From contig CAVOUS010000008.1 of the NCBI GenBank assembly GCA_963699675.1, forward strand, positions 1,126-65,125: a stretch of 64,000 nt of DNA, in the 5' to 3' direction. Under the pieces are notes generated by a model that had not been told where the DNA came from, searched no databases, and saw nothing but the letters and a program-made list of their open reading frames with translations. The position numbers were made by a program, and so were the translations under genes. Of this stretch, positions 1,197 through 20,612 are shown one piece after another. Each line of letters starts with the position of its first letter. Positions within the stretch are counted from its first letter, which is position 1. Source of the DNA: an uncultured Actinomycetota bacterium. Its GTDB lineage: Bacteria > Actinomycetota > Thermoleophilia > Solirubrobacterales > Solirubrobacteraceae.

Positions 1197-1847
1197 ATGA
1201 GCAACAGTACGAGAGCCGCAGACACGGAGAACACGGGCACGATGCCCGAGCACGAGCGCCGCTCCCGGGCGGGTCGCAAACGAGACCACAGTCGCGATGG
1301 CGTCATCCTCGAAGCAACGCTGGCCGTTTTAGCCGAGCACGGCTATGACGGCATGACAATCGACATGGTCGCCGCCCGAGCTGGCTCGGCGCGGGCGACC
1401 GTCTATCGGCGTTGGGCGACCAAAGCCGAACTCGTGCTCGAGGCCGTGGCGCAGATGAGCCGCGGCGACGTCAACCTGGATCAGCTGCCGGACACCGGCA
1501 CCCTGCGCGGGGATGTCACCGCCATGATCCTTCCCCTCAGCGACCAGGCGCAGCAGGTCCGCATCCAGGCAATGGCCGCTCTGCTGTCGCTGTCCAAAAC
1601 CGACGGCCGGCTCGCCGACGCCGCAAACGCCGCGGGCATCGGGCCGTGGATCGAGGTCAACCGCATCCTGATCCAGCGCGCGGTCGACCGCGGCGAGTTC
1701 CCGCCGCCAAGCGACATCGACACACTTGCCGAGCTCATCCCCATGATGTGCGTCTCGCGTGCTGTGCAACAGCAACCGATCACCCGGGAGTTCAGCCTCG
1801 CACTGATCGACGGCGTGATCATCCCCGCTCTGCGCGGCGGCCCCTGA
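1197..1847 (+). CDS. TetR/AcrR-family transcriptional regulator
   Basis: ILEATLAVLAEHGYDGMTIDMVAARAGSARATVYRRWATKAELV HTH; C-terminal PDTGTLRGD motif. Confidence 0.93.
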   Translation: MSNSTRAADTENTGTMPEHERRSRAGRKRDHSRDGVILEATLAVLAEHGYDGMTIDMVAARAGSARATVYRRWATKAELVLEAVAQMSRGDVNLDQLPDTGTLRGDVTAMILPLSDQAQQVRIQAMAALLSLSKTDGRLADAANAAGIGPWIEVNRILIQRAVDRGEFPPPSDIDTLAELIPMMCVSRAVQQQPITREFSLALIDGVIIPALRGGP

Positions 1848-2021
1848 TCTCACGGCTGCAAAGGCCGCTCAGGGAGTCGAACCGGCCCTGAACCGACAAC
1901 AAACCATGCCTCGGCTCACGGCCCGAGGCCGGGACATCGATCGACCGCGTCCGGGCGCCTCGCCCGGAAGGCCGGGCGCACCCGTGCCCGGAAAGCCACA
2001 CCTAACGAAAGGCAGACCAGC

Positions 2022-2450
2022 ATGAGCGTTAGCACCACCACTCACGTCAACTTCCGCGGCCAAGCCCGGGAAGCGCTCGAGTTCTACCAGTCCGTGTTCG
2101 GTGGCGAGAGGTCGATCGCCACCTACGCCGACATCCACGCCGTCGAGGAACCCGCCCAAGCCGACCACGTTGCCTTCGGACGCGTCGACGCGCCGAACGG
2201 CTTCACCATCATGGCCTACGACGTGCAGCCGTCCAAGGGCTATGACCCCGGCGAGAACCCCTTCTACATCACCCTGCAAGGAACCGCGGGCGACGAGATC
2301 CAACCGCTGTGGGACGCCCTAGCCGACTCGGCGACGACCATCCTCATCCCGCTCGCGCCCGCCCCCTTCGCTCCCCTCTACGGCATGCTCACCGACCGCT
2401 ACGGCGTCACCTGGATCGTCGGCGCCGACACCGCCCCGCAAACTGACTGA
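2022..2450 (+). CDS. VOC/PhnB-like glyoxalase family protein
   Basis: HVNFRGQAREALEFYQSVFGG and PFAPLYGMLTDRYGVTWIV motifs; GAAAGG RBS. Confidence 0.92.
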   Translation: MSVSTTTHVNFRGQAREALEFYQSVFGGERSIATYADIHAVEEPAQADHVAFGRVDAPNGFTIMAYDVQPSKGYDPGENPFYITLQGTAGDEIQPLWDALADSATTILIPLAPAPFAPLYGMLTDRYGVTWIVGADTAPQTD

Positions 2451-2501
2451 CCGTGCCGCCGGTGAGGTGGCAACCCGCCCCCGCCCACGCGTCCAGCGCG
2501 C

Positions 2502-2726
2502 TCACGCCGCCTGCTCGACGCCTGGGCCTCGCACAATCCACCAGCCGCGGCGGAAATCCTCGATGGCGAGGCACCGCTGCGCGCCGGTAACGCTGTCGCG
2601 GAACACGACGCAGCCGGTCGCGCCGATCGCGACGACCTCGACCAGCGACCCGCCGTCGGTGTAGTAGCCGCCGACGGGGACGCGTCGGCCGAGAGCGCGC
2701 TTCTGCTGAAAGTCGAGCAGGCTCAC
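2502..2726 (-). CDS. Small hypothetical protein (74 aa from GTG 2726)
   Basis: Protein-like sequence VSLLDFQQKRALGRRVPVGGYYTDGGSLVEVVAIG...WWIVRG; start overlaps the stop of the upstream ORF (GTGA). Confidence 0.5.
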   Translation of the reverse strand: MSLLDFQQKRALGRRVPVGGYYTDGGSLVEVVAIGATGCVVFRDSVTGAQRCLAIEDFRRGWWIVRGPGVEQAA

Positions 2727-2899
2727 GGGACCTCCAGCGCCGACTGGATCGTTGCGGGCGCGAAGCCGGGGAAGGCCATCGACGGTCGGCGTGCGAGGCG
2801 CGGCTGCTCGTCTTGCTCGCCGACCTGCTGCCGGCACTGGCGCGGTCGGATCTGGCAGGAGTCGCCGGGAACGTCGTTATTGGGGAATCGTCGCGCCAT
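2723..2899 (-). CDS. Small hypothetical ORF coupled to the 2502-2726 ORF
   Basis: ATG 2899 to TGA 2723 with a 4-nt overlap onto the next start; no family recognised. Confidence 0.3.
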   Translation of the reverse strand: MARRFPNNDVPGDSCQIRPRQCRQQVGEQDEQPRLARRPSMAFPGFAPATIQSALEVP

Positions 2900-3610
2900 G
2901 GCGGATGTATCGGCTGGCTGCGAGGGGTACATAAGCTGTCGGACATGCCCAGCTGCTGGCCTATTCCAGCCGAGTCCGGCTTCAGCTGACTCTCATTGTC
3001 CCGACCCGGACGTGCGCGACGGGGAACTCTGGACCCGTCCGTGGTCTAGTCGGCGTGGGTGAGACTGTCGCCCAGCGGCGTACGGTAGGAGAGGACTGAG
3101 CGTCCGCTGCGGCGTTGCCGGGACGAGTTCGACGTCGAGGAGGGTTTTGGGGTGTCCGCCGACTGAGCCGAGGCTGTGCCGGTCAGCGCGACGCAGCTGG
3201 CTGGTGCTTCGCGGTTCTGCCCGCTGGTTGAGAATGGGTGCGCGCGGGACCGATCGGTCCGGCCAATGCGCGCGATCGCGAGGAGGTGGGGGCGTTGGCG
3301 AGAATCCGGCGGAGGGGTAGATGGTCGCGTAGCGGTGTGGCTCGGCCCAGGTGGCGAGCGGTGGGCGTTTGGTGGAGGGGATGAACATCAGCTCGGCGTC
3401 GGTGATGGCGCGTGGCGGCGGAAGTCGAAAGCGGCCGACCCGAGCCTGATGAGATGCTCGTCTCTCGCCTCGTGAAAGTAGGCGATGCGGACATCGAAGT
3501 CGACGAGCTCCATCGCGCGGATGACCAGCCTCCCACTCCGCGATTGGCGAGCGGTGGTCGTCGATCATCCGCAGGCCGGCGCGGTGGGGACACTGCGTCG
3601 GTGCCGAGGG

Positions 3611-3868
3611 TCAGCGGAACGTATCGGCGGTGACGCGATCGACTTCGGTGATCGCGTCCGCCGGGATGCCCGCCCGCTTGGCGGCGGTGAGGATCGCGTC
3701 GGGGCTCGGCGCCTCGTAGAGGCAGTAGGAGCGGTGCCGATCGGCGCTCAGGAAGGAGAACAACCAGCTCACGCCCTCGTCGGCGTTGATGTGTTCGATC
3801 AGCGTCACGTCGTCGCTCGTCAAGTCGAGCTGTTCGGCGAAGTTGCGTTCGATCAGGTACGTCGGCAT
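3611..3868 (-). CDS. DUF4242 (SCO4226-like, nickel-binding) protein
   Basis: MPTYLIERNF...WLFSFLSADRHRSYCLYEAPSPDAILTAAKRAGIPADAITEV signature; TAGGAT 7 nt upstream of the ATG. Confidence 0.88.
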   Translation of the reverse strand: MPTYLIERNFAEQLDLTSDDVTLIEHINADEGVSWLFSFLSADRHRSYCLYEAPSPDAILTAAKRAGIPADAITEVDRVTADTFR

Positions 3869-8664: not shown

Positions 8665-9429
8665 ATGGAGCGGGTGCTCTATGACCGGATCGGTCGCGGC
8701 TATGCCGCGACTCGCCAGACCGATCCGCGGCTCGCCGCGCTGATCTGGGACGCGTTGGGTGACGCGGAGACGGTGCTCAATGTCGGTGCGGGCGCGGGCG
8801 CGTATGAGCCGCCGGACCGGACGGTGTTGGCGGTCGAACCGTCGGCAGTGATGCTCGGCCAACGCCCGGCGAATGCCCCTCCAACGGTGCAGGCGAGCGC
8901 CGAGGCGCTGCCGTTTGCCGACGATAGTTTCGACGCCGTCATGGCCGTGCTCAGCGACCACCATTGGCGTGACCGGCGCCAGGGGCTGCGGGAACTGCGT
9001 CGGGTGGCACGCCGTCGAGTCGTGCTGTTCAACGCCGACCCAGCCGAAGCCGAGCGGTTCTGGCTCACCGTCGAATACCTACCCGGTTTCCTTGACCTGA
9101 TCCCTGGTCGCTATCGCGTTGCCGGTGGGTGGCAAACCGAACTCGAACAGTCGTTAGGGCCGGTCCGGCTGATCGCCGCGCCCATCCCGCATGACTGCGT
9201 CGATGGGTTCTACGGCGCGTTCTGGCGTCGCCCCGCCGCCTACCTTGATCCGTCGGTTCGTGACGGGATCTCAGTGTTCTCTGCCCTCAATGCCGAAGAC
9301 GTCACTCGGGGCATCCACGGCTTGGAGGCCGACGTGCGCTCGGGTGCCTGGGACGAGCGGCACGTTGACATTCGCAACCGATCAGAACTGCACCTGGGCT
9401 ACTACGCAGTCACCGCCGAAGTGAGCTAA
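8665..9429 (+). CDS. Class I SAM-dependent methyltransferase
   Basis: YDRIGRGY, VLNVGAGAGAYE, AVEPSAVM, AEALPFADDSFDAVMA, HHW. Confidence 0.88.
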   Translation: MERVLYDRIGRGYAATRQTDPRLAALIWDALGDAETVLNVGAGAGAYEPPDRTVLAVEPSAVMLGQRPANAPPTVQASAEALPFADDSFDAVMAVLSDHHWRDRRQGLRELRRVARRRVVLFNADPAEAERFWLTVEYLPGFLDLIPGRYRVAGGWQTELEQSLGPVRLIAAPIPHDCVDGFYGAFWRRPAAYLDPSVRDGISVFSALNAEDVTRGIHGLEADVRSGAWDERHVDIRNRSELHLGYYAVTAEVS

Positions 9430-9528
9430 CCGAACCCAGAGATGGTGTCCTGAGCCTAACGCTGAGCGATCGGTCGGCCTGAGGAATCGGGCTGTCACGT
9501 TTTCGATCGCCCGTTACATGTACAGGAC

Positions 9529-10083
9529 ATGAACCACCTCAAAGCGAGCGACGCGGAGCTCCTCGTGGCCTCCGATAAGGATGCCGCGGCGTTTCGCGCC
9601 CTCTATAACCGCTACACGGAGCAGATCAACGGCTATCACCTGCGCCGTTGCCGTGACGAACAGGCGGCGGTTGACCTTACGGCCGAGACGTTCGCCCAGG
9701 CGTGGTGCGCACGGCGAGCGTTCCGAGACGAGGGGGGGAGCGCGGGGCCGTGGCTGTATGGGATCGCCCGCAACGTGTTGCTGCAGTCGGTCCGCCGCGA
9801 GCGCTTGGAGGATGGCGCCCGCCAGCGGCTCGGCATGCTCGAGCACACCGACCATCCGCCCGCCGCGCCCGAGCAGAGCTGGCTAAACGGTGTCGATGAG
9901 CTGCTCGACGAGCTGCCGGCCGATCAGCGCAGCGCGCTGGAGCTACGCGTCCTGGAGGACCTGTCGTACGTGGGAGTCGCCTCGCGGCTCTCGATCACAC
10001 CCGAGAACGCGCGGATGAGGGTCCATCGGGCTCTTAGCGCACTGCGCCGGGACCACTCACTCAGCACTGGAGAAGAGCAATGA
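9529..10083 (+). CDS. ECF RNA polymerase sigma factor
   Basis: DAELL..AFRALYNRY, DLTAETFAQAW, GPWLYGIARN (region 2); LPADQRSALELRVLEDLSYVGVASRL..ARMRVHRAL (region 4). Confidence 0.92.
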   Translation: MNHLKASDAELLVASDKDAAAFRALYNRYTEQINGYHLRRCRDEQAAVDLTAETFAQAWCARRAFRDEGGSAGPWLYGIARNVLLQSVRRERLEDGARQRLGMLEHTDHPPAAPEQSWLNGVDELLDELPADQRSALELRVLEDLSYVGVASRLSITPENARMRVHRALSALRRDHSLSTGEEQ

Positions 10084-10658
10084 AAATCGATCCGAAACTC
10101 GACGAGCTCGGTGATCGCCTCGAGCGATCCGCTGCCGCTGACCTGCGCTCCGAGCAGCGCACTCCCGGGGCGGTCATGGCGTGGGCGCGGCAGAGACGCT
10201 CGCGGCTGTTGGCAAGCAGCTCTCTTGGACTGGCGGGTATCGGCGCGGCCGTCGTGATCGTGCTCGGCGGCACCGCCGCAACCCCGCCGGCGTTCGCCAT
10301 CACCAGGCACGATGATGGCTCGGTGTTGGTGCAGCTCAGCGCCCAGGAGGACATCGCTCAGGCAAACCAGAAGCTTGCCACGATGGGGATCAACGAACAG
10401 ATCACGCTCTACTCCAACCCCAACCCGACCGCCGCCAGTGGGCGGGAGAATTGTGCCCCGGGTCCGGGCGCCGGGGTGCCCAATCCGCCCATCAAGGTCG
10501 TCGTCAACACAGACAACGCCGATAACACGGGCACCACCGGCGCCGTGGCCTGCGTCGTCGGGCCTCACACCTACTCGGGCCCCTACCCAGGCAACTCCGG
10601 TGACCCGGGCTCGGGCAACTCAGGTAGCACGACCGCCGGTAGCAAGAGCGCCGGTTGA
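10080..10658 (+). CDS. Single-pass membrane protein, putative anti-sigma factor
   Basis: ATGA overlap with the sigma gene; short cytoplasmic N-terminus, TM segment LGLAGIGAAVVIVLGG, extracellular PAFAITRHDDGSVLV domain with two Cys. Confidence 0.7.
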   Translation: MKIDPKLDELGDRLERSAAADLRSEQRTPGAVMAWARQRRSRLLASSSLGLAGIGAAVVIVLGGTAATPPAFAITRHDDGSVLVQLSAQEDIAQANQKLATMGINEQITLYSNPNPTAASGRENCAPGPGAGVPNPPIKVVVNTDNADNTGTTGAVACVVGPHTYSGPYPGNSGDPGSGNSGSTTAGSKSAG

Positions 10659-10985: not shown

Positions 10986-12475
10986 TTAGGTGATCTGTCT
11001 GAGCACCCGCTCTACATCTCGGGGGTTGAACGGCCAGAGGAATAGGGCGCGCATGTGTCCGGTGGGGTCGATGATGAACGCGACTTCGGAGTGAGTGATG
11101 TAGTGGATCGTGATCCCGGAGATGTGTTTGGTGACGACGGACACGCCGATCTCGTAGTGCTTCCAGACGTGGGCGAGTTGAGCTGGGGAGCCGACGGCCC
11201 ATTGCCATTGGGGCACGAGCTCCCATTCGCGAAAATCTCGGAGCAGGTCCGCGCGTGTGTCGGCGTAGACGTCCACGCTGACGGCCAGGATCTCCGGCCG
11301 CTGCGATGCTGGCATCTGACGGACGACCTGATTGAGCGCCTGTGCCGTGAGCGGACAGAAATTGCGCAGAGGGGATCGATAAAGGTCACGATCACCGGCC
11401 GTCCGCGATAGGCGGTGAGCGAGACTCGCCGACCTACCTGGTCGCGCAGTGTGAACGCGGGCGCGGCCCGACGGCCGGCCGCCCAAGTGACTTGAGGGAG
11501 GGCAGGCTTCGAACTGACCCGGACGGCGGGCGCGGCATTGGCGTGGCGGAAAATGCCGACGGCGAGCACCGGTATCCCGACGGCGAGCCCGAGCAGGACC
11601 ACCACGCCGGGGACGGCCCAGCGCAGCCCGATCGGTACGCTCGTCGCGCTCGCGCCCGATTGTTCACCCACGACTGTCGGGCGCGGACGTCGTCGCCACC
11701 GGGCGACGGCAACGCCAAGCAGAAGAAGCAGGGCCGCGGTGACCGCCGTGAACACGATCACGCGATCGTCGCTATGGCGCGTGGCCGCCACTGTCGGACT
11801 GGAGCCGGCGTGCGTAGGCGAACCGACTGTGAAGCCGTCCGCTGCGGCGAGCCGACGCACCGCCGTTTGTGCGGCAGCGAGGATCCCGGCTGGGCCGGGT
11901 GCGATCCGACCTTTCGATAGGAGTCCGTAGGCGGCGGCTGTTGAATGGTTCGGCCAGTTGATGCCGAACCCGTTCGGCATCACCACGAGAAGCCGCTCCT
12001 TGTAAGTCAACGACAGCTCGATTCCCAAAAAGCGGGCGTAGATCCGCGGCTTGTGCCAGAGCTCTGTGATCGAGCCGAGGTCATAGTCAGTGGAGACGAC
12101 CGCGACGCGGATCGCGAACCCCTCGCGGTTCGCCGCACCGACGACGTCAAGCAATCGCCGGGCCGCTGCGGATTCCGAACCCGACTGGGACGTGACGAAG
12201 ACCTGTTTGGTCGTGAGGTAGTCGCTAGCGGGATCGCCGTCGGCGCGCGCGACCGCAGTAAACGCGCCGGCGCCCATGGCGACCACGAAAAGCGCCAGAA
12301 CACATCCACGCTTGATCCAGTCCGCTGCGCGCGACAACCATTTCGATGGCCGCCCTTGGTTCCCGCCGTATTGCTGCTCGTGCGTAGGGGGAGGACGGCG
12401 CCGGCCGCGATCAGCAGGAGCACGAGGAGGGTGGCCATGGCGGTCTGTCGGCGACGGGCTGTTCGGGTTGGTCAT
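10986..12475 (-). pseudogene. Secreted domain + 2 TM + SCO1/SenC copper-chaperone fusion, with a 1-nt frameshift near 11366
   Basis: APAFTLRDQVGRRVSLTAYRGRPVIVTFIDPLC continues in another frame as (R)NFCPL...ILAVSVD...ITHSEVAFIIDPTG. Restoring one C gives the SCO CxxxC (CRNFC) plus the conserved His. Confidence 0.82.
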
Positions 12476-13737
12476 TCGGCGGCTTTTTGACGGCCGGCGA
12501 GGAGAGGGAACGAGCGTTTGGCTCGCGGCGGGATGATGTAGTTGGCTCGTTTGAGGACAAACATGAACGCGTTGATCCCGTTGTTGACGGTGTCGGTGAT
12601 CGCTGGGTTTTGCAGCTGCGCGGATGACGCGTTCATCGCATTGCGGGTCGTGACGAAGTCCTCGATGGAGCGTTGGATCGAGACGAAGTGAAGCCCGGCT
12701 TGACCCCCGTCGACCGTGTTGAAGTCGCGGCGGATGATCAGTGGCTTGCCGTGCCGGCGAGCGCGGGCCGAGGTCTGGGAGTGACCGATCACGCCGTAGT
12801 GGTTGATCGCCTGGCCGAGGAGGTTGGGGTCGCTCTCGGCGTCGGTGGTGAACCGGCTGACCTCTTTGGGGGTGACCTGGGGGGCGTACATGCGGGCGAT
12901 CCGGTCTTTGGCGCTCAGTTCGCCATACCAGCTGTCAAGTCGCAGGCGCATGTAGCTGACCTGCATGGTGGTTCCGCCGGCGAATGGCCCGTCCGGCACG
13001 GTCACGGAGTCCTCGGTGGCCTGGTTTTTTCGGAGATTGGATTTGAATCCCATGAACAGCGGCGCGCCCGTGGCCACCGGCCGTCCGGCGGGGATCCCAC
13101 CGACGTTCTGATGCGCGGCGGGCAGGCCGGCACCGACAAATCCGGTCCGTGTCTCGCGCCAGACCAGCGCGCGTGAGATCTCCACGGGGCCATCGGCGCC
13201 CGGCAGCGGTTCGCCGTGAACCAGCGCGGCTTCGACGGCCGCGAGACGTTCCTCGTCGTTGCACGCGAAGTGCAGGCAGAGGTCGTAGTCGTCGATGGCC
13301 GGCAGTTCGAACTCCGATAGTCCCTTCGCGGCGGGGATCGGCGACGCGACCCGTAGGACCCGAGCGAAATAGCCTGGACCCCATCCGGCGGTGAACAGCA
13401 GCCCGTCCGGGCCCCACGGATATCGGCGCTCAAGCGTCCGTAGTGCTGCCTCCAGCACGCTCGCGTGCGCGGCAGTCGGGCCCCCGGCGATGCCGAAGAA
13501 CAGCAGCCGGTCAAACCGTGGCGCCACGGGATTGCCGTCAGCATCGCGGGTCAGGGTCGCCCCCCACGCGTGCTGGCGTGCCGGCAGGCCGTCGGGTTGG
13601 GAGCCGAGGGCGACCGGCGCAGGGGCCGGCGCGGGCGACGAGCCGTTGTTTAGGGCGCGGTCCAGGCCCACGCCGACGGCCGCGGCGCCAGCGACCACCG
13701 CGCCGGTCCCGAGCAGGAACCGCCGTCGGGTCAGCAT
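12472..13737 (-). CDS. Tat-exported DyP-peroxidase-like protein (resembles haloarchaeal DUF7405-type Tat proteins)
   Basis: Twin-arginine signal TRRRFL; LFMGFKS, FAGGTTMQVS, proximal IGHSQ, distal IIRRDF, LHFVSIQRSIEDF motifs. Confidence 0.7.
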   Translation of the reverse strand: MLTRRRFLLGTGAVVAGAAAVGVGLDRALNNGSSPAPAPAPVALGSQPDGLPARQHAWGATLTRDADGNPVAPRFDRLLFFGIAGGPTAAHASVLEAALRTLERRYPWGPDGLLFTAGWGPGYFARVLRVASPIPAAKGLSEFELPAIDDYDLCLHFACNDEERLAAVEAALVHGEPLPGADGPVEISRALVWRETRTGFVGAGLPAAHQNVGGIPAGRPVATGAPLFMGFKSNLRKNQATEDSVTVPDGPFAGGTTMQVSYMRLRLDSWYGELSAKDRIARMYAPQVTPKEVSRFTTDAESDPNLLGQAINHYGVIGHSQTSARARRHGKPLIIRRDFNTVDGGQAGLHFVSIQRSIEDFVTTRNAMNASSAQLQNPAITDTVNNGINAFMFVLKRANYIIPPRAKRSFPLLAGRQKAAE

Positions 13738-13768: not shown

Positions 13769-14407
13769 TCACGAGACGGGCTTCCAGTGGAAGGTGACGT
13801 TGGCGCGGTGGGGATGCAACCAAACGTTCTGATACTCGATGTGGCGCGCGGACACGGGCGGACTGACCAGGAGGCTCATCTGGTAGGTGCCCGCGCCCGG
13901 AAGGCTGACGTTGTTGCCGTAGTGGGGGCCCATGTACGCGGAGATCATCGGCCACATACGCTCGTCGTACACGACCTTTCCAGCCTTGCGGATCGTCGCC
14001 CACACGCTCGCGTAGGGAATCGCTACACCCGTGTGAGAGTCGTTGAGCATCACCATCAGGTGAAAGCTGGTGTTCTTGGGCGGCGTGATCTTCTGCTCGC
14101 GCGTGCCGTCGAACACGAAGAACGGGACCGCGGTCATCGCCTGCGCCTCGATCTTCATGCCCTGCCAAGTGGCGCTTGCCAGAGGCTGGGTCGGGACCGG
14201 CTTGATCCCGTTGACCGAGGCGACGGTCGAGCTGCCCGCCCCCGAGCCCATGTTCATCGCGGCCGTGCTCCCCGAGCCGCTTGACGCGGCCGCCACCGCG
14301 GTGGATGTTGCCTTGGTCGCGCTCGCGCAGCCCGCGATCAACACGACCGCGACGCACGCCAGCGTACCCCGGGCGGCCGTCTTGCGAGACCTACTTGTTT
14401 CAAGCAT
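13769..14407 (-). CDS. Lipoprotein of the P19/Tp34/FetP (Iron_transport-like) metal-binding family
   Basis: Lipobox IAGC; FHLM, MWPMISAYMGPHYGNNVSLPGAGTYQMSLLVSPPVSARH aligns with the family motif MPMxxxDGPHYGxNxxxxGxGxY...PP...RH. Confidence 0.8.
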   Translation of the reverse strand: MLETSRSRKTAARGTLACVAVVLIAGCASATKATSTAVAAASSGSGSTAAMNMGSGAGSSTVASVNGIKPVPTQPLASATWQGMKIEAQAMTAVPFFVFDGTREQKITPPKNTSFHLMVMLNDSHTGVAIPYASVWATIRKAGKVVYDERMWPMISAYMGPHYGNNVSLPGAGTYQMSLLVSPPVSARHIEYQNVWLHPHRANVTFHWKPVS

Positions 14408-14500: not shown

Positions 14501-15499
14501 TCAGACGGCGGCCGGCGAGACTTGGCGCGCGCCCGCGGCTCGCTCCGCCTCGCTCGGTACTCCTTGCTCGGACTTGATCAGCGTGTACAGCCCGAACGCC
14601 AGGACGACGAACAACAGTCCCGAGTTCGGGTCGGTAGCTCCGCCGGCGAAGATGCCGCCGAACCCCTGTCCGAGCACCCAGTAGGCGAGGTTCAGGACGA
14701 TCGCGAGAATCAAAAACGGCTTTGCCCGCCAATTGAACCCCACCGCGATCCCGATCGCCGCCGACGTGAACGCCAGCACGACCGCGATCACCAGCCCGTT
14801 GCCCTTCGCGGCATTCGCGGCCCAATCCTGGACCGTGCTCAGCCAGCTCATCCCCGACGGGGCGGCATTGATCAGATCGTGGGCGGCGTTTGCGCTGCTG
14901 TTCGGAGCGATCAGCCACAGCCACCCCATCAGCACCCACAGGATCGCCCACGCCGTCCGCGCGCCGCGCACCCCGAGCAACCCACCGGGACGCCCGTTGG
15001 GCCACACGATCGCGCCGATGATCGCGTACAGCAGCACCGCGCCGGGCGCGCCGGTGAGCGGGCTGGCCATATTCATGAACAGCATCCCGAACGCCTCCCC
15101 GAACCACCACACCACCAACGCCCACGCGAACGAGACAGCGAGCGCGGGCTTGACCGTTCGCCGCGACAGGATCCCGACCCCGATCGCAACCTGCACCAGA
15201 CCAGCCATGGTGTTGAACAGCGCCTGATGACCTTGGAGCGCGGTGGCGCCCCACGTCATGCTGTGCGTGACCCATGACGGCTGCCCCGCCGTCATCGCGG
15301 TCAGCATCGAGATAAAGCCCTTCCCGTACATGAACGACTGAAACTGCAGCGCCCCGTCCAACAGCCAGATCAGCCCCAGCACCGTCTGGATCGCACGGCG
15401 GGTATCCGAGGCGAAATACGCCCGGGCGCGAGGCACGACAGACGCGCCCGGAGAACTCCGGAGCGAGCCGGCCCCGAGGTCGGCACTACTCGTACTCAT
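14501..15499 (-). CDS. Polytopic membrane protein with internal duplication (DoxX-like halves), Met-rich
   Basis: About 8 hydrophobic segments; the halves end in WWFGEAFGMLF and YWVLGQGFGGIF...TDPNSG. Confidence 0.75.
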   Translation of the reverse strand: MSTSSADLGAGSLRSSPGASVVPRARAYFASDTRRAIQTVLGLIWLLDGALQFQSFMYGKGFISMLTAMTAGQPSWVTHSMTWGATALQGHQALFNTMAGLVQVAIGVGILSRRTVKPALAVSFAWALVVWWFGEAFGMLFMNMASPLTGAPGAVLLYAIIGAIVWPNGRPGGLLGVRGARTAWAILWVLMGWLWLIAPNSSANAAHDLINAAPSGMSWLSTVQDWAANAAKGNGLVIAVVLAFTSAAIGIAVGFNWRAKPFLILAIVLNLAYWVLGQGFGGIFAGGATDPNSGLLFVVLAFGLYTLIKSEQGVPSEAERAAGARQVSPAAV

Positions 15500-15733: not shown

Positions 15734-16345
15734 TCAGACCGGAGGACCGCGACCCGACCAACCGCCCGCCAGCGGCGCCAACCTCGGCACCAGCACATCG
15801 CGCGGGCGAAGCACCAAAACCACACACCGAGGACCCGCCGCGACCGGACGGGCACGACGCTCGGCGACCTCGTTGAGCACCCACCAGACGCCGTGAAACA
15901 CTGCCGCCAGTACCAAGCCCACGCACACCGCAGCCGGAACCGACCACATGCCGCCGTAGCCGAAGATCCCCGCCAAGCCGGCCGGATGGCCGGTCGCGAA
16001 CAGGCCCTCGAGAAACTCCTGAGACACATAGATCGCGACGAGACACGCCGAACACGCCAGCCACAACCCCGCGAACGACATCGAGTACCGCGCCACGGAA
16101 TGCTGGCCAGAAAAAGCCCGAGCCAACGCCCGCAGAAACCCGCCAACCACCAACGCGAGCAGCAACACCAGCCACGGAACGACCGAATGCAGATACGAAT
16201 GACCTGTGCGCTGAAGCTCGACGCCGGCAGCACCGCCAAACGCCAGCACATAGCGCAGCTCGTGCACCACAAACGCAGCCGGAGGCAACAACGCAACCTG
16301 CGCAAGCCCCCGAACCACCGACCGACGGTCAGCGCGCAACATCAT
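15734..16345 (-). CDS. Hypothetical membrane protein with His/Glu motifs
   Basis: About 4 TM segments; HELRY, GHSYLH, QEFLEG..GH. Confidence 0.7.
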   Translation of the reverse strand: MMLRADRRSVVRGLAQVALLPPAAFVVHELRYVLAFGGAAGVELQRTGHSYLHSVVPWLVLLLALVVGGFLRALARAFSGQHSVARYSMSFAGLWLACSACLVAIYVSQEFLEGLFATGHPAGLAGIFGYGGMWSVPAAVCVGLVLAAVFHGVWWVLNEVAERRARPVAAGPRCVVLVLRPRDVLVPRLAPLAGGWSGRGPPV

Positions 16346-16768: not shown

Positions 16769-18277
16769 ATGTCGGACACTCAGGGCAAGGTCCGGCGGCC
16801 CAGCGGCCCGGATCGACGTGCCGCCACCGGCGGCAGGCTCCCCGCAAGCGCGCTCGAGGGCTTGGGAGCCGAGAGCGCCAGCGTGTTGCTGCTCGGTATG
16901 GAGGAGCTCGACGACGCATGTTGGGCTGTACTGGTCGAGGCGGGTGTTCCGCTTGAGCGCGTTGTGGATGTCGCCGGTGCGCTACGCGCCCTGACGAATG
17001 GCCCTGTTTCGGTGGTGATTGCGGGCGCGCGCTGGGCTAGCGAGCTGACGGCCGCAGTGCGGGGTCGGCGCGAGCTGGCCGAGGTTCATATCGTCGTGGG
17101 CGCGGCACTCGATTCGCCGCGCGAGTTGCGCGACGCGCTCGACGCTGGCGCCGATGACGTGATCCGCGTGCCCTTCGAACCGGAGGTGCTCGCGGCGCGC
17201 GTGGCGGCCGGGTTCCGCGCGGCGCGTTTGCGAGCCAACGAGGTCCTGCTGAGCTCGCTGGTCGCGAACATCCCCGGCGCCCTGTATCGCAGCGTTTGGG
17301 AGGCGAACTGGTTTACGATGAAGTGGCTGAGCGACGAAATCGAGGTGATCTCTGGCTACCCAGCCTCCGACTTCGTCGATAACTCCGCGCGGACGTTTGC
17401 GAGTGTGATCCATCCCGACGATCGCGAGCAGGTCGTACGGTCGGTGATAGAGGGGGAAAAGGCCGGCCGCCCGTTCACGTTGGAGTACCGGATCCAGCAC
17501 CGCGACGGCGATGTGCGCTGGGTGCTTGAACGAACTCAGGTCCGGGAGGCTGGCAACGGTCGGCGCTGGGGCGACGGAGCGATCTTCGACATCACCGTCC
17601 GCCGTGCCGCCGAGCAGGCACTGCGGGAGAGGGAGGTGGTCGACGCGCAGCTCGCCGAGGTCCGCGCCTCGCGGGCCCGCATCGTTGAAGCCGCCGACCG
17701 AGCCCGCCGCGAGATCGAGCGCAACCTCCATGACGGCGCGCAGCAGCGGTTCGTGTCAGTGGCACTGGAACTGCAACGGTGTTTGGCGCCCCACCGCGAG
17801 CTGTCCGATGACGCGCGCGGGGAGCTCGAGGGCGTGCTCACCGAACTGCGGGCCGGGCTCGCCGAGCTGCGCGACCTCGCCCGTGGCCTGCATCCGGCCG
17901 TTCTGACCGACCGCGGACTCGAGCGGGCGTTGACGACCCTCGCCGCCCACGCCACGGTGCCCGTCGAGCTTCGGGTCGCGCTTCCCGGGCCGCGGCTCGC
18001 CATGCCTGTGGAGGCCGCCGCTTACTTCACGGTCTGCGAGGCGCTGACGAACGTGGCTAAGCACGCACGCGCGACCCGTGTCTGGGTCAACGTTGAGCTC
18101 CTCGACGATCATCTCAGCGTCGAAGTGGGCGACGACGGCGCGGGTGGCGCTGACCTCAGCGCCGGCTCGGGCCTGCAGGGGCTCCGCGACCGCATCGCAG
18201 CGGTTAACGGACAGCTGACCATCGACAGTCAGCCCGGGGCCGGCACGGTCCTACGAGCGCGGCTGCCAATCGACTGA
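16769..18277 (+). CDS. Soluble sensor histidine kinase: degenerate receiver-like domain, PAS, HisKA_3, HATPase
   Basis: DALDAGADDVIRVPF; PAS SVIHPDDRE..FTLEYRIQHRDGDVRWVLE; IERNLHDGAQQR H-box; EALTNVAKHA; DDGAGG; GSGLQGLRDR. Confidence 0.9.
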   Translation: MSDTQGKVRRPSGPDRRAATGGRLPASALEGLGAESASVLLLGMEELDDACWAVLVEAGVPLERVVDVAGALRALTNGPVSVVIAGARWASELTAAVRGRRELAEVHIVVGAALDSPRELRDALDAGADDVIRVPFEPEVLAARVAAGFRAARLRANEVLLSSLVANIPGALYRSVWEANWFTMKWLSDEIEVISGYPASDFVDNSARTFASVIHPDDREQVVRSVIEGEKAGRPFTLEYRIQHRDGDVRWVLERTQVREAGNGRRWGDGAIFDITVRRAAEQALREREVVDAQLAEVRASRARIVEAADRARREIERNLHDGAQQRFVSVALELQRCLAPHRELSDDARGELEGVLTELRAGLAELRDLARGLHPAVLTDRGLERALTTLAAHATVPVELRVALPGPRLAMPVEAAAYFTVCEALTNVAKHARATRVWVNVELLDDHLSVEVGDDGAGGADLSAGSGLQGLRDRIAAVNGQLTIDSQPGAGTVLRARLPID

Positions 18278-19036: not shown

Positions 19037-20044
19037 TCAGTGGTTGTACGTCCCGTCGTAAACCTGGCGAAGCGAGGCCTTCGTGTACCCGGCGGGGATG
19101 GTCCGGTCTTTGGCCAGGGCGATGTTGTCGGGCGTAGCCGGGTCCCAATCGCCCACGTTCAGATCAGGCGCGCCGTTCTGCACCGAGACGGTGCGCAACG
19201 GCTGATAGGTCTGCGCATCGACATAGAGGGCGATCTGGGTGCTCGGGTTCCCGGGGGCGTTGGGCACCTCCAGCGAGAGCGCGATCACCTGCGTGCCGTC
19301 GACTGTCGCGTTCCCGTGTCGGATCACCTCGCCGTTCTGGAGCGCCTGTTGCACCTGCGCCGGAGTGCGGAACAACAGGCTGGCAGAGGGTCCCTCGTTG
19401 AGGTTGAAGGCGGCCTGGTACTGATTGCGGCTATACGTGTGGGTTGTTGGGTTGAGGACGGTCTCGATGTCGGTTCCCACCCGGCCGGCGAGCCCGGGCG
19501 TCCAATGGTCGAACGAGGTCAGCTCAATCGTCCCATCGCTGTAGTAGATCGCGCCTCGCGAGTCGGAGGTCCCGTCCGGGGCAACGTACTCGTAGGCGTC
19601 GCTCAGCTTCCGTCCCAGGTTGATGAGCGAGCCGTCCGCGGCCACGTCGCCACCCGCATAGGTGGCATACCGAACGACCGTGCCGTTCTCGACGCTGGTG
19701 GCGATGTTCGCCTTCACGCGCTTGATGATGTACGCGGTGTCCTCGGTCATCGCAGGGCTCACCGAAGACGTAAGCGCCTTGGAGAACGCCAGCCGCGGCG
19801 CCGCAGTTGCGCTCAGGGCACCGCTGGCGACAACGACACCGGCCGCGATCGCGGCCGCCGCGCCGACCATGCTGAGCCGCAGCGTGTTGCGGCGCCGGAC
19901 CGGAAGGCGCCAGCGAGCTCGCCGCGGTCCGGCAATCTCCCGCTGAAGCACCGCTCGAATTCGGTCCTCCCCCGCGTCACCGGGGGCGGGGGTCGCGACG
20001 CCGACGTCTCGCAGCATGGTGAGAAGGTCGTTGGTCTCAGGCAT
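19037..20044 (-). CDS. Single-pass membrane protein, putative anti-sigma (CU044_5270-like)
   Basis: Overlaps the sigma stop; Arg-rich cytoplasmic stretch, TM MVGAAAAIAAGVVVASG, large extracellular domain ending LYVDAQTYQPLR. Confidence 0.7.
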   Translation of the reverse strand: MPETNDLLTMLRDVGVATPAPGDAGEDRIRAVLQREIAGPRRARWRLPVRRRNTLRLSMVGAAAAIAAGVVVASGALSATAAPRLAFSKALTSSVSPAMTEDTAYIIKRVKANIATSVENGTVVRYATYAGGDVAADGSLINLGRKLSDAYEYVAPDGTSDSRGAIYYSDGTIELTSFDHWTPGLAGRVGTDIETVLNPTTHTYSRNQYQAAFNLNEGPSASLLFRTPAQVQQALQNGEVIRHGNATVDGTQVIALSLEVPNAPGNPSTQIALYVDAQTYQPLRTVSVQNGAPDLNVGDWDPATPDNIALAKDRTIPAGYTKASLRQVYDGTYNH

Positions 20045-20612
20045 GAGATCCTCCGTTGAGTTGGAGTTCCGCGTTGCCGGCCGGTCGGCCTGAGCGCAGC
20101 GAGGTCGTCATCAGCCGCTTGCGCGCCCGCGTGATCCTCGAACTGATCGTGCCGACGGGCACGCCGATCGCCACCGCGGCCTGCTCTTGGGTCAGCTCGC
20201 CCCAGACCACGAGCAGCAGCGTGTCGCGCTCGACTGCTGGCAGCGCGCGAAGCGCCGCCACCAGCTCAGGCGCAAGACCTGATTCACGATGCTCGACCAC
20301 CTCCGGCATCTCGCGCGTCAGGCGCTCAAGCGCCGCTAGTCGACGACGCTCCAGCCGCCGATGATCGGCGATCACGTTGTTGGCGATGCCGAGCAGCCAC
20401 GGCAGCGCCTGGTCATGATCCGCGCGATAGCCGGCCCGCCCGCGAAACGCTCGCACGAACACCTCAGAAGTGACATCGTCGCCCGCCTCGCCGATCCGTC
20501 GGATGGCATAGCGCCTCACCGCTTGCCCGTGCCGCTCGAAAAGCGCCGCGAACAACACGGGCTCCTCGACAGCGCGCGCCAGCAGCTCGGCGTCAGTTGA
20601 ATTGGAGTGCAT
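20037..20612 (-). CDS. ECF RNA polymerase sigma factor
   Basis: TDAELL..FAALFERH, DDVTSEVFVRAF, PWLLGIANN, LPAVERDTLLLVVWGELTQEQAAVAIGVPVGTISSRITRAR. Confidence 0.93.
   Translation of the reverse strand: MHSNSTDAELLARAVEEPVLFAALFERHGQAVRRYAIRRIGEAGDDVTSEVFVRAFRGRAGYRADHDQALPWLLGIANNVIADHRRLERRRLAALERLTREMPEVVEHRESGLAPELVAALRALPAVERDTLLLVVWGELTQEQAAVAIGVPVGTISSRITRARKRLMTTSLRSGRPAGNAELQLNGGSHA

Follow-up and report, generated by a model that had tools for sequence, protein, structure and literature searches.

What does a protein of the P19 family handle when the acidic residues that hold iron in its relatives are replaced by methionine? P19, FetP and FtrA are textbook components of copper-dependent iron uptake. 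The gene for a lipoprotein of this type, with methionine at such positions, lies in a stretch of 64,000 nucleotides (the window) from contig CAVOUS010000008.1 of an uncultured bacterium of the Solirubrobacteraceae. An original prediction, made from the letters of the window, held that this protein keeps the copper ligands of P19, that both acidic iron ligands have become methionine, and that specificity has shifted to the soft ions Cu(I) and Ag(I). Our answer is that the lipoprotein would be an extracytoplasmic, lipid-anchored protein of the P19 fold that handles Cu(I) and not iron, a reading to which we give about an even chance. The family itself is already catalogued; what is newly described here is the re-tooled site, the EfeB-like partner and the Sco/CtaG neighborhood.

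By sequence and by fold the lipoprotein is a member of the PF10634/DUF7350 superfamily. In a Pfam scan two families passed their curated thresholds, and nothing else was returned: PF10634 (Iron_transport), with 40.3 bits where 21 are required and E = 4.6e-10, and PF24041 (DUF7350), with 33.1 bits where 27 are required. None of six proteins of the cluster had an NCBIfam match. Searches of solved structures with the lipoprotein sequence found Brucella FtrA, E. coli FetP, Treponema Tp34 and Rubrivivax FtrA-P19, and C. jejuni P19 was found with a family profile of 35 sequences, which matches Brucella FtrA (8vv5) with E = 1.8e-10. Source annotations of the protein read 'iron transporter' or 'Fe2+ transport protein', the first of these being the label given to the gene by automated pipelines. 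The AlphaFold2 model built on 35 homologues has a core block with a predicted local distance difference test score (pLDDT) mostly between 80 and 95, preceded by a disordered segment (residues 1-59, pLDDT < 50). When the model was compared with the PDB using Foldseek, all 29 matches at E <= 0.001 were P19/FetP/FtrA chains or a designed cage re-using the P19 scaffold, with template modelling (TM) scores of 0.58-0.68, normalised to the target; no significant match fell outside P19/FetP/FtrA, and H. pylori CrdA was a weak structural neighbor (E = 0.03). Because the core is modelled with confidence and the matches are confined to P19/FetP/FtrA, the predicted β-sandwich of P19 is a solid assignment.

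The N-terminus of the protein consists of a basic n-region and a hydrophobic core followed by a lipobox. Here and below, motif counts refer to the best 120 of 1709 relatives found in a word-indexed search, and the conservation of individual columns was read from the 35-sequence family alignment. The lipobox is present in 117 of the 120 homologues, and its G26 and C27 are invariant. It is followed by a tether rich in Ser, Ala and Gly, which includes M51-N-M53, and the globular part begins at about residue 60. The two Pfam matches, the structural comparison and the lipobox together bear out the prediction of a P19/FetP-like lipoprotein. The strings on which that prediction was based (FHLMVM, WPMISAYMGPHYG, ARH, and the additional methionine residues of AAMNMG) are all present in the open reading frame of 212 amino acids, and the nucleotide coordinates of all the motifs were checked against the DNA.

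The metal ligands can be placed by alignment. The residue numbering is fixed by the titles of PDB entries, in which E44Q, M88I and D92H are given as variants of P19, and E46Q and M90I as variants of FetP. The copper ligands of P19 are reported (Chan 2010, Koch 2011) to be His42, Met88, His95 and His132, and the variant titles agree with this. In the profile alignment the family sequence tsfHLMvm is placed against SDVHLEAD of Brucella FtrA, PMiseyMGPHYG against PMVAN-DGPHYG with a one-residue insertion in the family loop, and ARH against NQH of FtrA and HRH of FetP. The same register was obtained in an independent MAFFT alignment that included full-length E. coli FetP (its sequence recovered from plasmid pUM146), the FtrA fragment and distant relatives. 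H116 corresponds to His42, M154 to Met88, H162 to His95 and H189 to His132, the last His of P19. The complete His/Met copper set is thus in register in both alignments and invariant in the family, as had been supposed.

The acidic site of P19 has not been kept. In Mn-P19 the Mn(II) ion, a surrogate for iron, is bound by Glu3, Glu44, Asp46 and Asp92 at a distance of about 7 Å from the copper (PMC9174327). Glu44 corresponds to M118 of the lipoprotein, Asp46 to M120 and Asp92 to M159, so that three of the four acidic ligands are methionine. Both the profile and the MAFFT alignment put the methionine residues on the Glu and Asp positions and not away from them, which had been named as grounds for refuting the prediction. 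The expected exchange, of Glu in HLE and of Asp in DGPHYG, is found at the homologous positions, while the count of two acidic ligands was one short, with Asp46 replaced as well. The invariant K69 was considered as the counterpart of Glu3 and dropped, as the two alignments disagree; the equivalent of Glu3 is not reliably placed by sequence.

The motifs are not chance occurrences, because MGPHYG is found in 119 and FHLMVM in 105 of the 120 closest homologues and the key columns are invariant. These comprise H116, M118, M154, M159, H162, R188 and H189, together with the key residues of the loop from W152 to G164; M51, M53 and M120 are each conserved at 90% or above. An exhaustive HMMER search of 1.84 billion representatives at 50% identity (E <= 0.001) found only 331 clusters. 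Across such representatives, aligned to the family model, there is a clade signature H-M-x-W-M-M-H(-H), with position 120 varying between T, V, M, S and L. The Met substitutions therefore define an existing, uncharacterised Pfam clade and are not peculiar to the gene in the window. Judged from these alignments, M118 and M159 belong to the clade as a whole and M120 is a feature of a Solirubrobacterales subgroup. One representative (P0260) is of the HLE type with a His at the Asp92 position, and this pairing shows that the Asp92 position co-varies with that of HLE/HLM.

The clade includes haloarchaeal-looking proteins of 350-400 amino acids that have two domains, twin-arginine translocation (Tat) signals and lipoboxes (for example representatives P0200, P0212, P0225, P0237 and P0246). 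Their first domain has the H, M, W, M, M and H of the signature and lacks the last His; of the ligands, just those equivalent to H162 and H189 are retained in the second domain. In P19 the fourth copper His reportedly comes from the partner subunit. The arrangement in the two-domain relatives fits a fused pseudo-dimer, which would be able to build exactly one complete site, in agreement with a copper site that, like that of P19, is shared between subunits. Because these relatives keep one complete site per protein, the Met pair travels with the functional copper site. The single-domain protein of the window would presumably need to form a homodimer to complete its own.

Further methionine residues lie between the lipid anchor and the domain. 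An MxM or MxxM motif is found in this segment in 118 of the 120 close homologues, and M51 and M53 are conserved within a linker that is otherwise variable. More distant relatives have longer tethers that are much richer in Met and His, such as 'DDMGDMDMTEGSSDMAMDDADSMGDMGDMAMMM', 'SSMPGMKMGGKAGSMPGMDMGG' and 'HGDDHGAAAADDHADADHDGHGGH'. Sequences of Met and His like these are characteristic of proteins that capture Cu(I), as in Ctr1, CopC/PcoC, PcoE/SilE and the CueO insert.

Table 1. Features of the lipoprotein gene and its surroundings in the window
Feature	Position	Strand	Remarks
ECF (extracytoplasmic function) sigma factor gene, then probable anti-sigma membrane protein	19037-20612	(-)	flanks the cluster
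PAS/HisKA_3 histidine kinase gene	16769-18277	(+)	divergent from the 203-aa gene
203-aa (amino acid) membrane protein	15734..16345	(-)	first gene of the cluster; conserved H28, H49, H53, H120 and QExLEG motif
332-aa polytopic membrane protein	14501..15499	(-)	upstream of the lipoprotein gene; no known family
Perfect 11-bp G+C-rich stem, GAGGCCCCGCC/GGCGGGGCCTC, 10-nt loop	14450..14481	(-)	between the 332-aa and lipoprotein genes; no T-run after it
Lipoprotein gene, P19/FetP fold, DUF7350 clade, 212 aa	13769..14407	(-)	open reading frame and translation; ATG start
Signal peptide and lipobox L-I-A-G-C27, residues 1-27	14327..14407	(-)	direct reading of the sequence
AAMNMG tether motif, M51-N52-M53	14249..14257	(-)	between lipid anchor and domain
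FHLMVM, residues 115-120; H116-L-M118-V-M120	14048..14062	(-)	coordinates for H116-M120
Loop WPMISAYMGPHYG, residues 152-164	13916..13954	(-)	W152-P-M154-I-S-A-Y-M159-G-P-H162-Y-G
A187-R188-H189	13841..13849	(-)	
DUF7405, Tat-signal EfeB/DyP-like protein	12472..13737	(-)	directly downstream of the lipoprotein gene; PF24152 at 1.6e-99
Membrane-anchored Sco1/SenC-like copper chaperone gene, split	10986..12475	(-)	SCO1-SenC Pfam match on the 3' open reading frame
ECF sigma factor gene, then probable anti-sigma membrane protein	9529-10658	(+)	flanks the cluster

The lipoprotein gene lies within a cluster on the minus strand, in the order 203-aa membrane protein, 332-aa membrane protein, lipoprotein, DUF7405 and Sco1/SenC-like protein (Table 1). 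We scanned one genome per GTDB species and obtained 180 related loci, of which 80 were kept and their open reading frames searched, within 10 kb to either side, with the proteins of the window; almost all of these come from metagenome-assembled genomes (MAGs) of Solirubrobacterales, either Solirubrobacteraceae or Conexibacteraceae. DUF7405 is encoded immediately downstream of the lipoprotein in 73 of the 80 loci. The two membrane proteins, usually upstream, are present in 67 (332 aa) and 63 (203 aa), and in 53 there is a Sco-like gene no more than 10 kb away, often directly after DUF7405. Caa3_CtaG, a cytochrome oxidase assembly factor, is found in nine loci. At the locus of a distant homologue, P0161 (L092, positions 1-951 and 1772-3771), a Caa3_CtaG-like gene lies directly upstream and overlaps the start of the homologue gene. 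The DUF7405-DUF7350 pair is also found beside two-domain relatives in two unrelated metagenomic contigs (L088 and L091), and it is because of this recurrence that we regard the pair as the core module. The contigs of the distant homologues P0167 and P0225 are too short to give a gene context.

The permease that accompanies P19-type proteins in iron uptake was sought with negative results. None of the conserved neighbors has a Pfam match to FTR1, a jackhmmer search with E. coli FetM found no FTR1 protein in the 80 loci, and RExxE motifs are essentially absent from both membrane-protein families. A search for IdeR-like boxes gave no consensus match with fewer than five mismatches and none at the operon start, the regulators of this order being not known. 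Upstream of the operon there were no CsoR-like palindromes, and counts of 7-mers revealed only the G+C-rich background.

The closest partner of the lipoprotein, DUF7405, carries the twin-arginine signal LTRRRFLLG and has a weak Pfam match to Dyp_perox_C, and some JGI records label its relatives 'dye decolorizing peroxidase' (DyP). PDB sequence searches with the single sequence and with a profile gave nothing meaningful, and its hhalign comparison with EfeB was statistically weak (probability 0.4). The model of the protein is poor, with pLDDT 49.6 and residues 199-400 unfolded; all 59 of its significant Foldseek matches are DyP-type peroxidases, at low TM scores, and given the quality of the model we use them only together with the collinearity of motifs. 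DUF7405 has 421 amino acids and E. coli EfeB 423, and their motifs are collinear. GFKSN at 230 corresponds to GFKDG at 232 in the GXXDG region, GH319S to SH329I at the proximal His, and IIRR337D to MLRR347G at the distal Arg. In DUF7405 the distal Asp is replaced by an invariant Ser (residue 233). By its motifs the protein reads as an EfeB-like haem protein that lacks the distal catalytic Asp. The invariant Ser argues against an ordinary peroxidase cycle, and DUF7405 may not be a conventional peroxidase.

The two membrane proteins fall outside the catalogued families. Searches of Pfam, NCBIfam and the PDB gave no match to the 332-aa protein, and when 29 members of its family were scanned leniently against Pfam, only noise was returned. 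Within 'GEAFGMLFMNMA' its E135, G138, M139 and M142 are invariant and M144 is conserved at 90% or above, making an MxxMxM motif. In some cases the 332-aa protein and the P19-like protein form one continuous open reading frame (P0500, and loci L012, L015, L060 and L065, at approximately 8900-10650) in which the internal signal peptide and lipobox are kept; this is either a true fusion or the loss of a stop codon. The stem between the two genes in the window may be an element of mRNA processing or stability, or an attenuator. The 203-aa protein has no Pfam or NCBIfam match.

The Sco-like gene is interrupted in the window. One nucleotide has been deleted at position 11365, within the Cys-x3-Cys motif (TGC-GC for TGC-CGC), and the two frames join as TFIDPLC|RNFCPL. 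Intact close relatives read IVTFIDPLCRNLCPL ... ITH[ST]. The Sco-like proteins of the loci have C-x3-C-P, as CRNLCP or CTT[IV]CP, and those of L008, L009, L010 and L015 also have ITH[ST]...ID, the motif supplying the His ligand of Sco. Three independent soil runs (X1, X2 and X4) have Logan contigs that share the deletion, and the extra base is present in an otherwise identical contig from X3 and in more divergent contigs from X12 and X20. We conclude from these contigs that the frameshift is a real and recent polymorphism and not an error of assembly. The Sco partner is probably inactive in this strain, to judge from the broken frame. Run X20, which is labelled as a metatranscriptome, has contigs of a relative of approximately 93% identity over the Sco, DUF7405 and 203-aa genes and none over the lipoprotein gene, though such contigs cannot show absence.

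A number of other features surround these genes. Over the roughly 1-27 kb of the window that were inspected, the genes other than those in Table 1 are unrelated (ThrRS, IF3, PheRS and regulators). Some genomes have two copies of the lipoprotein-DUF7405 pair (L017 and L070 on contig CAWKLB010000014.1; L056 and L080 in the same MAG). Three recurrent neighbors have no Pfam family. A membrane protein of approximately 378 amino acids is encoded in 34 of the 80 loci (for example L044:4620-5756), and its predicted mature N-terminus is a His (ALA|HGP...), which recalls His-brace copper proteins. A lipoprotein of approximately 210 amino acids is encoded in 28 loci (for example L076:12087-12719). An 'ADGDP...' domain is found in 38 open reading frames (for example L031:6353-7075) and also as the N-terminal part of Sco fusion proteins. 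At the P0161 locus, two proteins encoded downstream of the homologue have predicted mature N-termini that begin with His (APA|HGG and AGA|HGF).

The Streptomyces lividans operon consisting of sco, ecuc (a lipoprotein copper chaperone), SLI_4212 (a putative copper transporter) and dtpA (a Tat-exported DyP) provides a precedent for genes of this kind acting in copper trafficking (PMC4736821). Mutants in dtpA, sco and ecuc are rescued by added copper, and the authors suggest that copper may be oxidised by DtpA, from Cu(I) to Cu(II), before it is passed on (PMC4736821). We favor a role in handling Cu(I) for our lipoprotein because of its Met tether, the lack of FTR1, the Sco and CtaG neighbors, and a DyP-like partner as in the Streptomyces operon. 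The same features would support the Cu(I) part of the predicted shift to soft ions, with Sco in 53 loci and FTR1 in none of the 80; Ag(I) would be only a chemical mimic, and nothing indicates a silver biology.

If the lipoprotein handles Cu(I), the Met tether would capture the ion outside the membrane and hand it to the Met-lined site. A thioether-lined site beside the His3Met center, or merged with it, could then hold the Cu(I). M118 may itself join the His3Met center and make it more favorable to Cu(I). In FetP, Glu46 is said to touch the copper in one of two positions. The DyP-like haem protein would either change the redox state of the copper or use the P19-fold protein as its redox partner. 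From there copper could pass to Sco and on to the centers of cytochrome oxidase; alternatively, the 332-aa protein, in which an MxxMxM motif is conserved, could be its path across the membrane. The lipoprotein would thus fill the place that ECuC/PCuAC has in the sco-ecuc-SLI_4212-dtpA operon.

Several observations weigh against a role in handling copper. That M118, M120 and M159 gather at a single point is something we infer from homology to P19, and M120 is not conserved outside the Solirubrobacterales subgroup. Three acidic residues (D148, E149 and E191) are invariant in the family and could bind a hard ion. The DUF7405 partner, whose model is poor, resembles EfeB, a member of an iron-uptake system, and the QExLEG motif of the 203-aa protein bears a faint likeness to RExxE, the iron motif found in FTR1. 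The Sco-like gene is frameshifted in the window, and no such gene lies within 10 kb in one third of the 80 loci. We found no mention of DUF7350 or DUF7405 in the papers that were searched.

Some of these points could be accommodated by an iron-uptake hybrid of P19 and EfeB, in which the DyP-like protein would oxidise Fe(II), the copper site of the P19 fold would take part in iron redox chemistry, iron would bind at another acidic patch and the membrane proteins would replace FTR1. The match to Iron_transport, the iron-transport annotations, the collinearity of DUF7405 with the EfeB of EfeUOB and the three remaining acidic residues are all as such a system would have them, and so are the QExLEG motif and the conserved His residues of the 203-aa protein. 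We nevertheless consider it unlikely. Three of the four Mn/Fe ligands are now methionine, a poor ligand for non-haem iron, the 80 loci contain neither FTR1 nor EfeU, no IdeR-like operator was found, and Met-rich tethers with Sco and CtaG neighbors are hallmarks of copper. Because two features that define the P19/FetP/FtrA systems by function, an acidic site for iron and an FTR1-type partner, are both missing, the lipoprotein should not be filed as an 'iron transporter'.

The protein could alternatively carry no cargo, and be a cupredoxin-like shuttle that passes electrons to or from DUF7405 by means of a single copper, with the methionine residues tuning its potential or serving as sacrificial antioxidants beside an enzyme that uses peroxide. 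The association with DUF7405 is the tightest and most widespread of all (73 of the 80 loci, and contigs L088 and L091), the His3Met site is fully conserved, and a DyP-like partner without the distal Asp is perhaps no ordinary peroxidase. Yet a shuttle leaves the MxM tethers, the membrane partners and the Sco and CtaG neighbors unexplained, and the strict conservation of two positions of the second metal site suggests that a second site is retained; we find the proposal distinctly improbable. Finally, a hemophore- or NEAT-like haem binder, using the conserved His and Met residues on its β-sandwich and working with an EfeB-like deferrochelatase to take iron out of haem (a role that has been suggested for EfeB-type proteins, and the E. 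coli EfeB record reads 'heme-containing peroxidase/deferrochelatase'), is very hard to credit when all four P19 copper ligands are in register, no significant structural match lies outside P19/FetP/FtrA, and neighbors such as Sco and CtaG are in keeping with copper.

If the lipoprotein does handle Cu(I), the consequences extend beyond this locus. Hundreds of annotations of the Met-lined clade would be wrong, in abundant soil Actinomycetota and in haloarchaeal-type genomes. The clade would be a natural experiment in which the scaffold stays fixed while a site for hard metals becomes one for soft metals. The EfeB/DyP-like partner would provide a tractable system in which to study the role of DyP-type proteins in copper trafficking, and the 332-aa and 203-aa membrane proteins would be candidates for a new copper permease. 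A broader idea, which we put forward with considerable doubt, is that DUF7350 and DUF7405 form an ancient extracytoplasmic copper-redox module of archaea and bacteria. In such a module the substrate site of a P19-type, ferroxidase-like protein would have switched from Fe(II) to Cu(I), and the Asp-less DyP-like protein would act on the bound copper, as a cuprous oxidase or redox switch, to load Sco and cytochrome oxidase or a novel Met-lined permease. If true, this would explain directly, at the molecular level, the link between DyP proteins and copper trafficking that is seen with DtpA in Streptomyces.

With P19, FetP, FtrA and Tp34 the lipoprotein has in common the PF10634 match, the β-sandwich at TM scores of about 0.61-0.68 normalised to the target, copper ligands in register and the PM...GPHYG loop, and Tp34 is a lipoprotein like the protein of the window. 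It differs from all four in having methionine in place of their Glu44, Asp46 and Asp92, in Trp152 at the position of the first Met of their FMPM, and in its Met-motif tether. The genetic context of P19, FetP and FtrA is also different, as the cluster in the window lacks an FTR1/FetM/FtrC permease and has neither FtrB nor FtrD, its partners being the EfeB-like protein and the two membrane proteins of no known family. EfeUOB/FepABC shares with the cluster an extracytoplasmic binding protein of copper type and a Tat-exported EfeB-like protein, in which the GFK.. motif, the proximal His and the RR are collinear. In contrast to that system, the cluster lacks EfeU/FTR1, the EfeO cupredoxin, an M75 domain and the acidic iron site, and in GXXDG the Asp has become Ser.

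Among proteins that handle copper, CusF, CopC/PcoC, PcoE/SilE and CrdA have no sequence homology to the lipoprotein and the likeness is chemical only. In these proteins soft monovalent ions are held by MxM motifs and by sites rich in thioether groups. Within its own family, the lipoprotein has the signature of the DUF7350 (PF24041) proteins, H-L-M with W-P-M...M-G-x-H-[YF]-G, and like them is paired with DUF7405; it differs from the two-domain Tat lipoproteins in being single-domain, in its additional M120 and in an exact, canonical GPHYG. ECuC and PCuAC similarly present His and Met ligands outside the membrane, whereas they have no homology to the lipoprotein, belong to another fold family and differ in gene order and membrane proteins; the lipoprotein has no Pfam match to the PCuAC domain (DUF461), and the spacing H(M)x10Mx21HxM is absent from it. 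The DyP-like partner also differs from S. lividans DtpA, by lacking the distal Asp. The operon logic is nonetheless that of S. lividans sco-ecuc-SLI_4212-dtpA: a lipoprotein metallochaperone, one or more membrane proteins, a Tat-exported DyP-type protein, and Sco.

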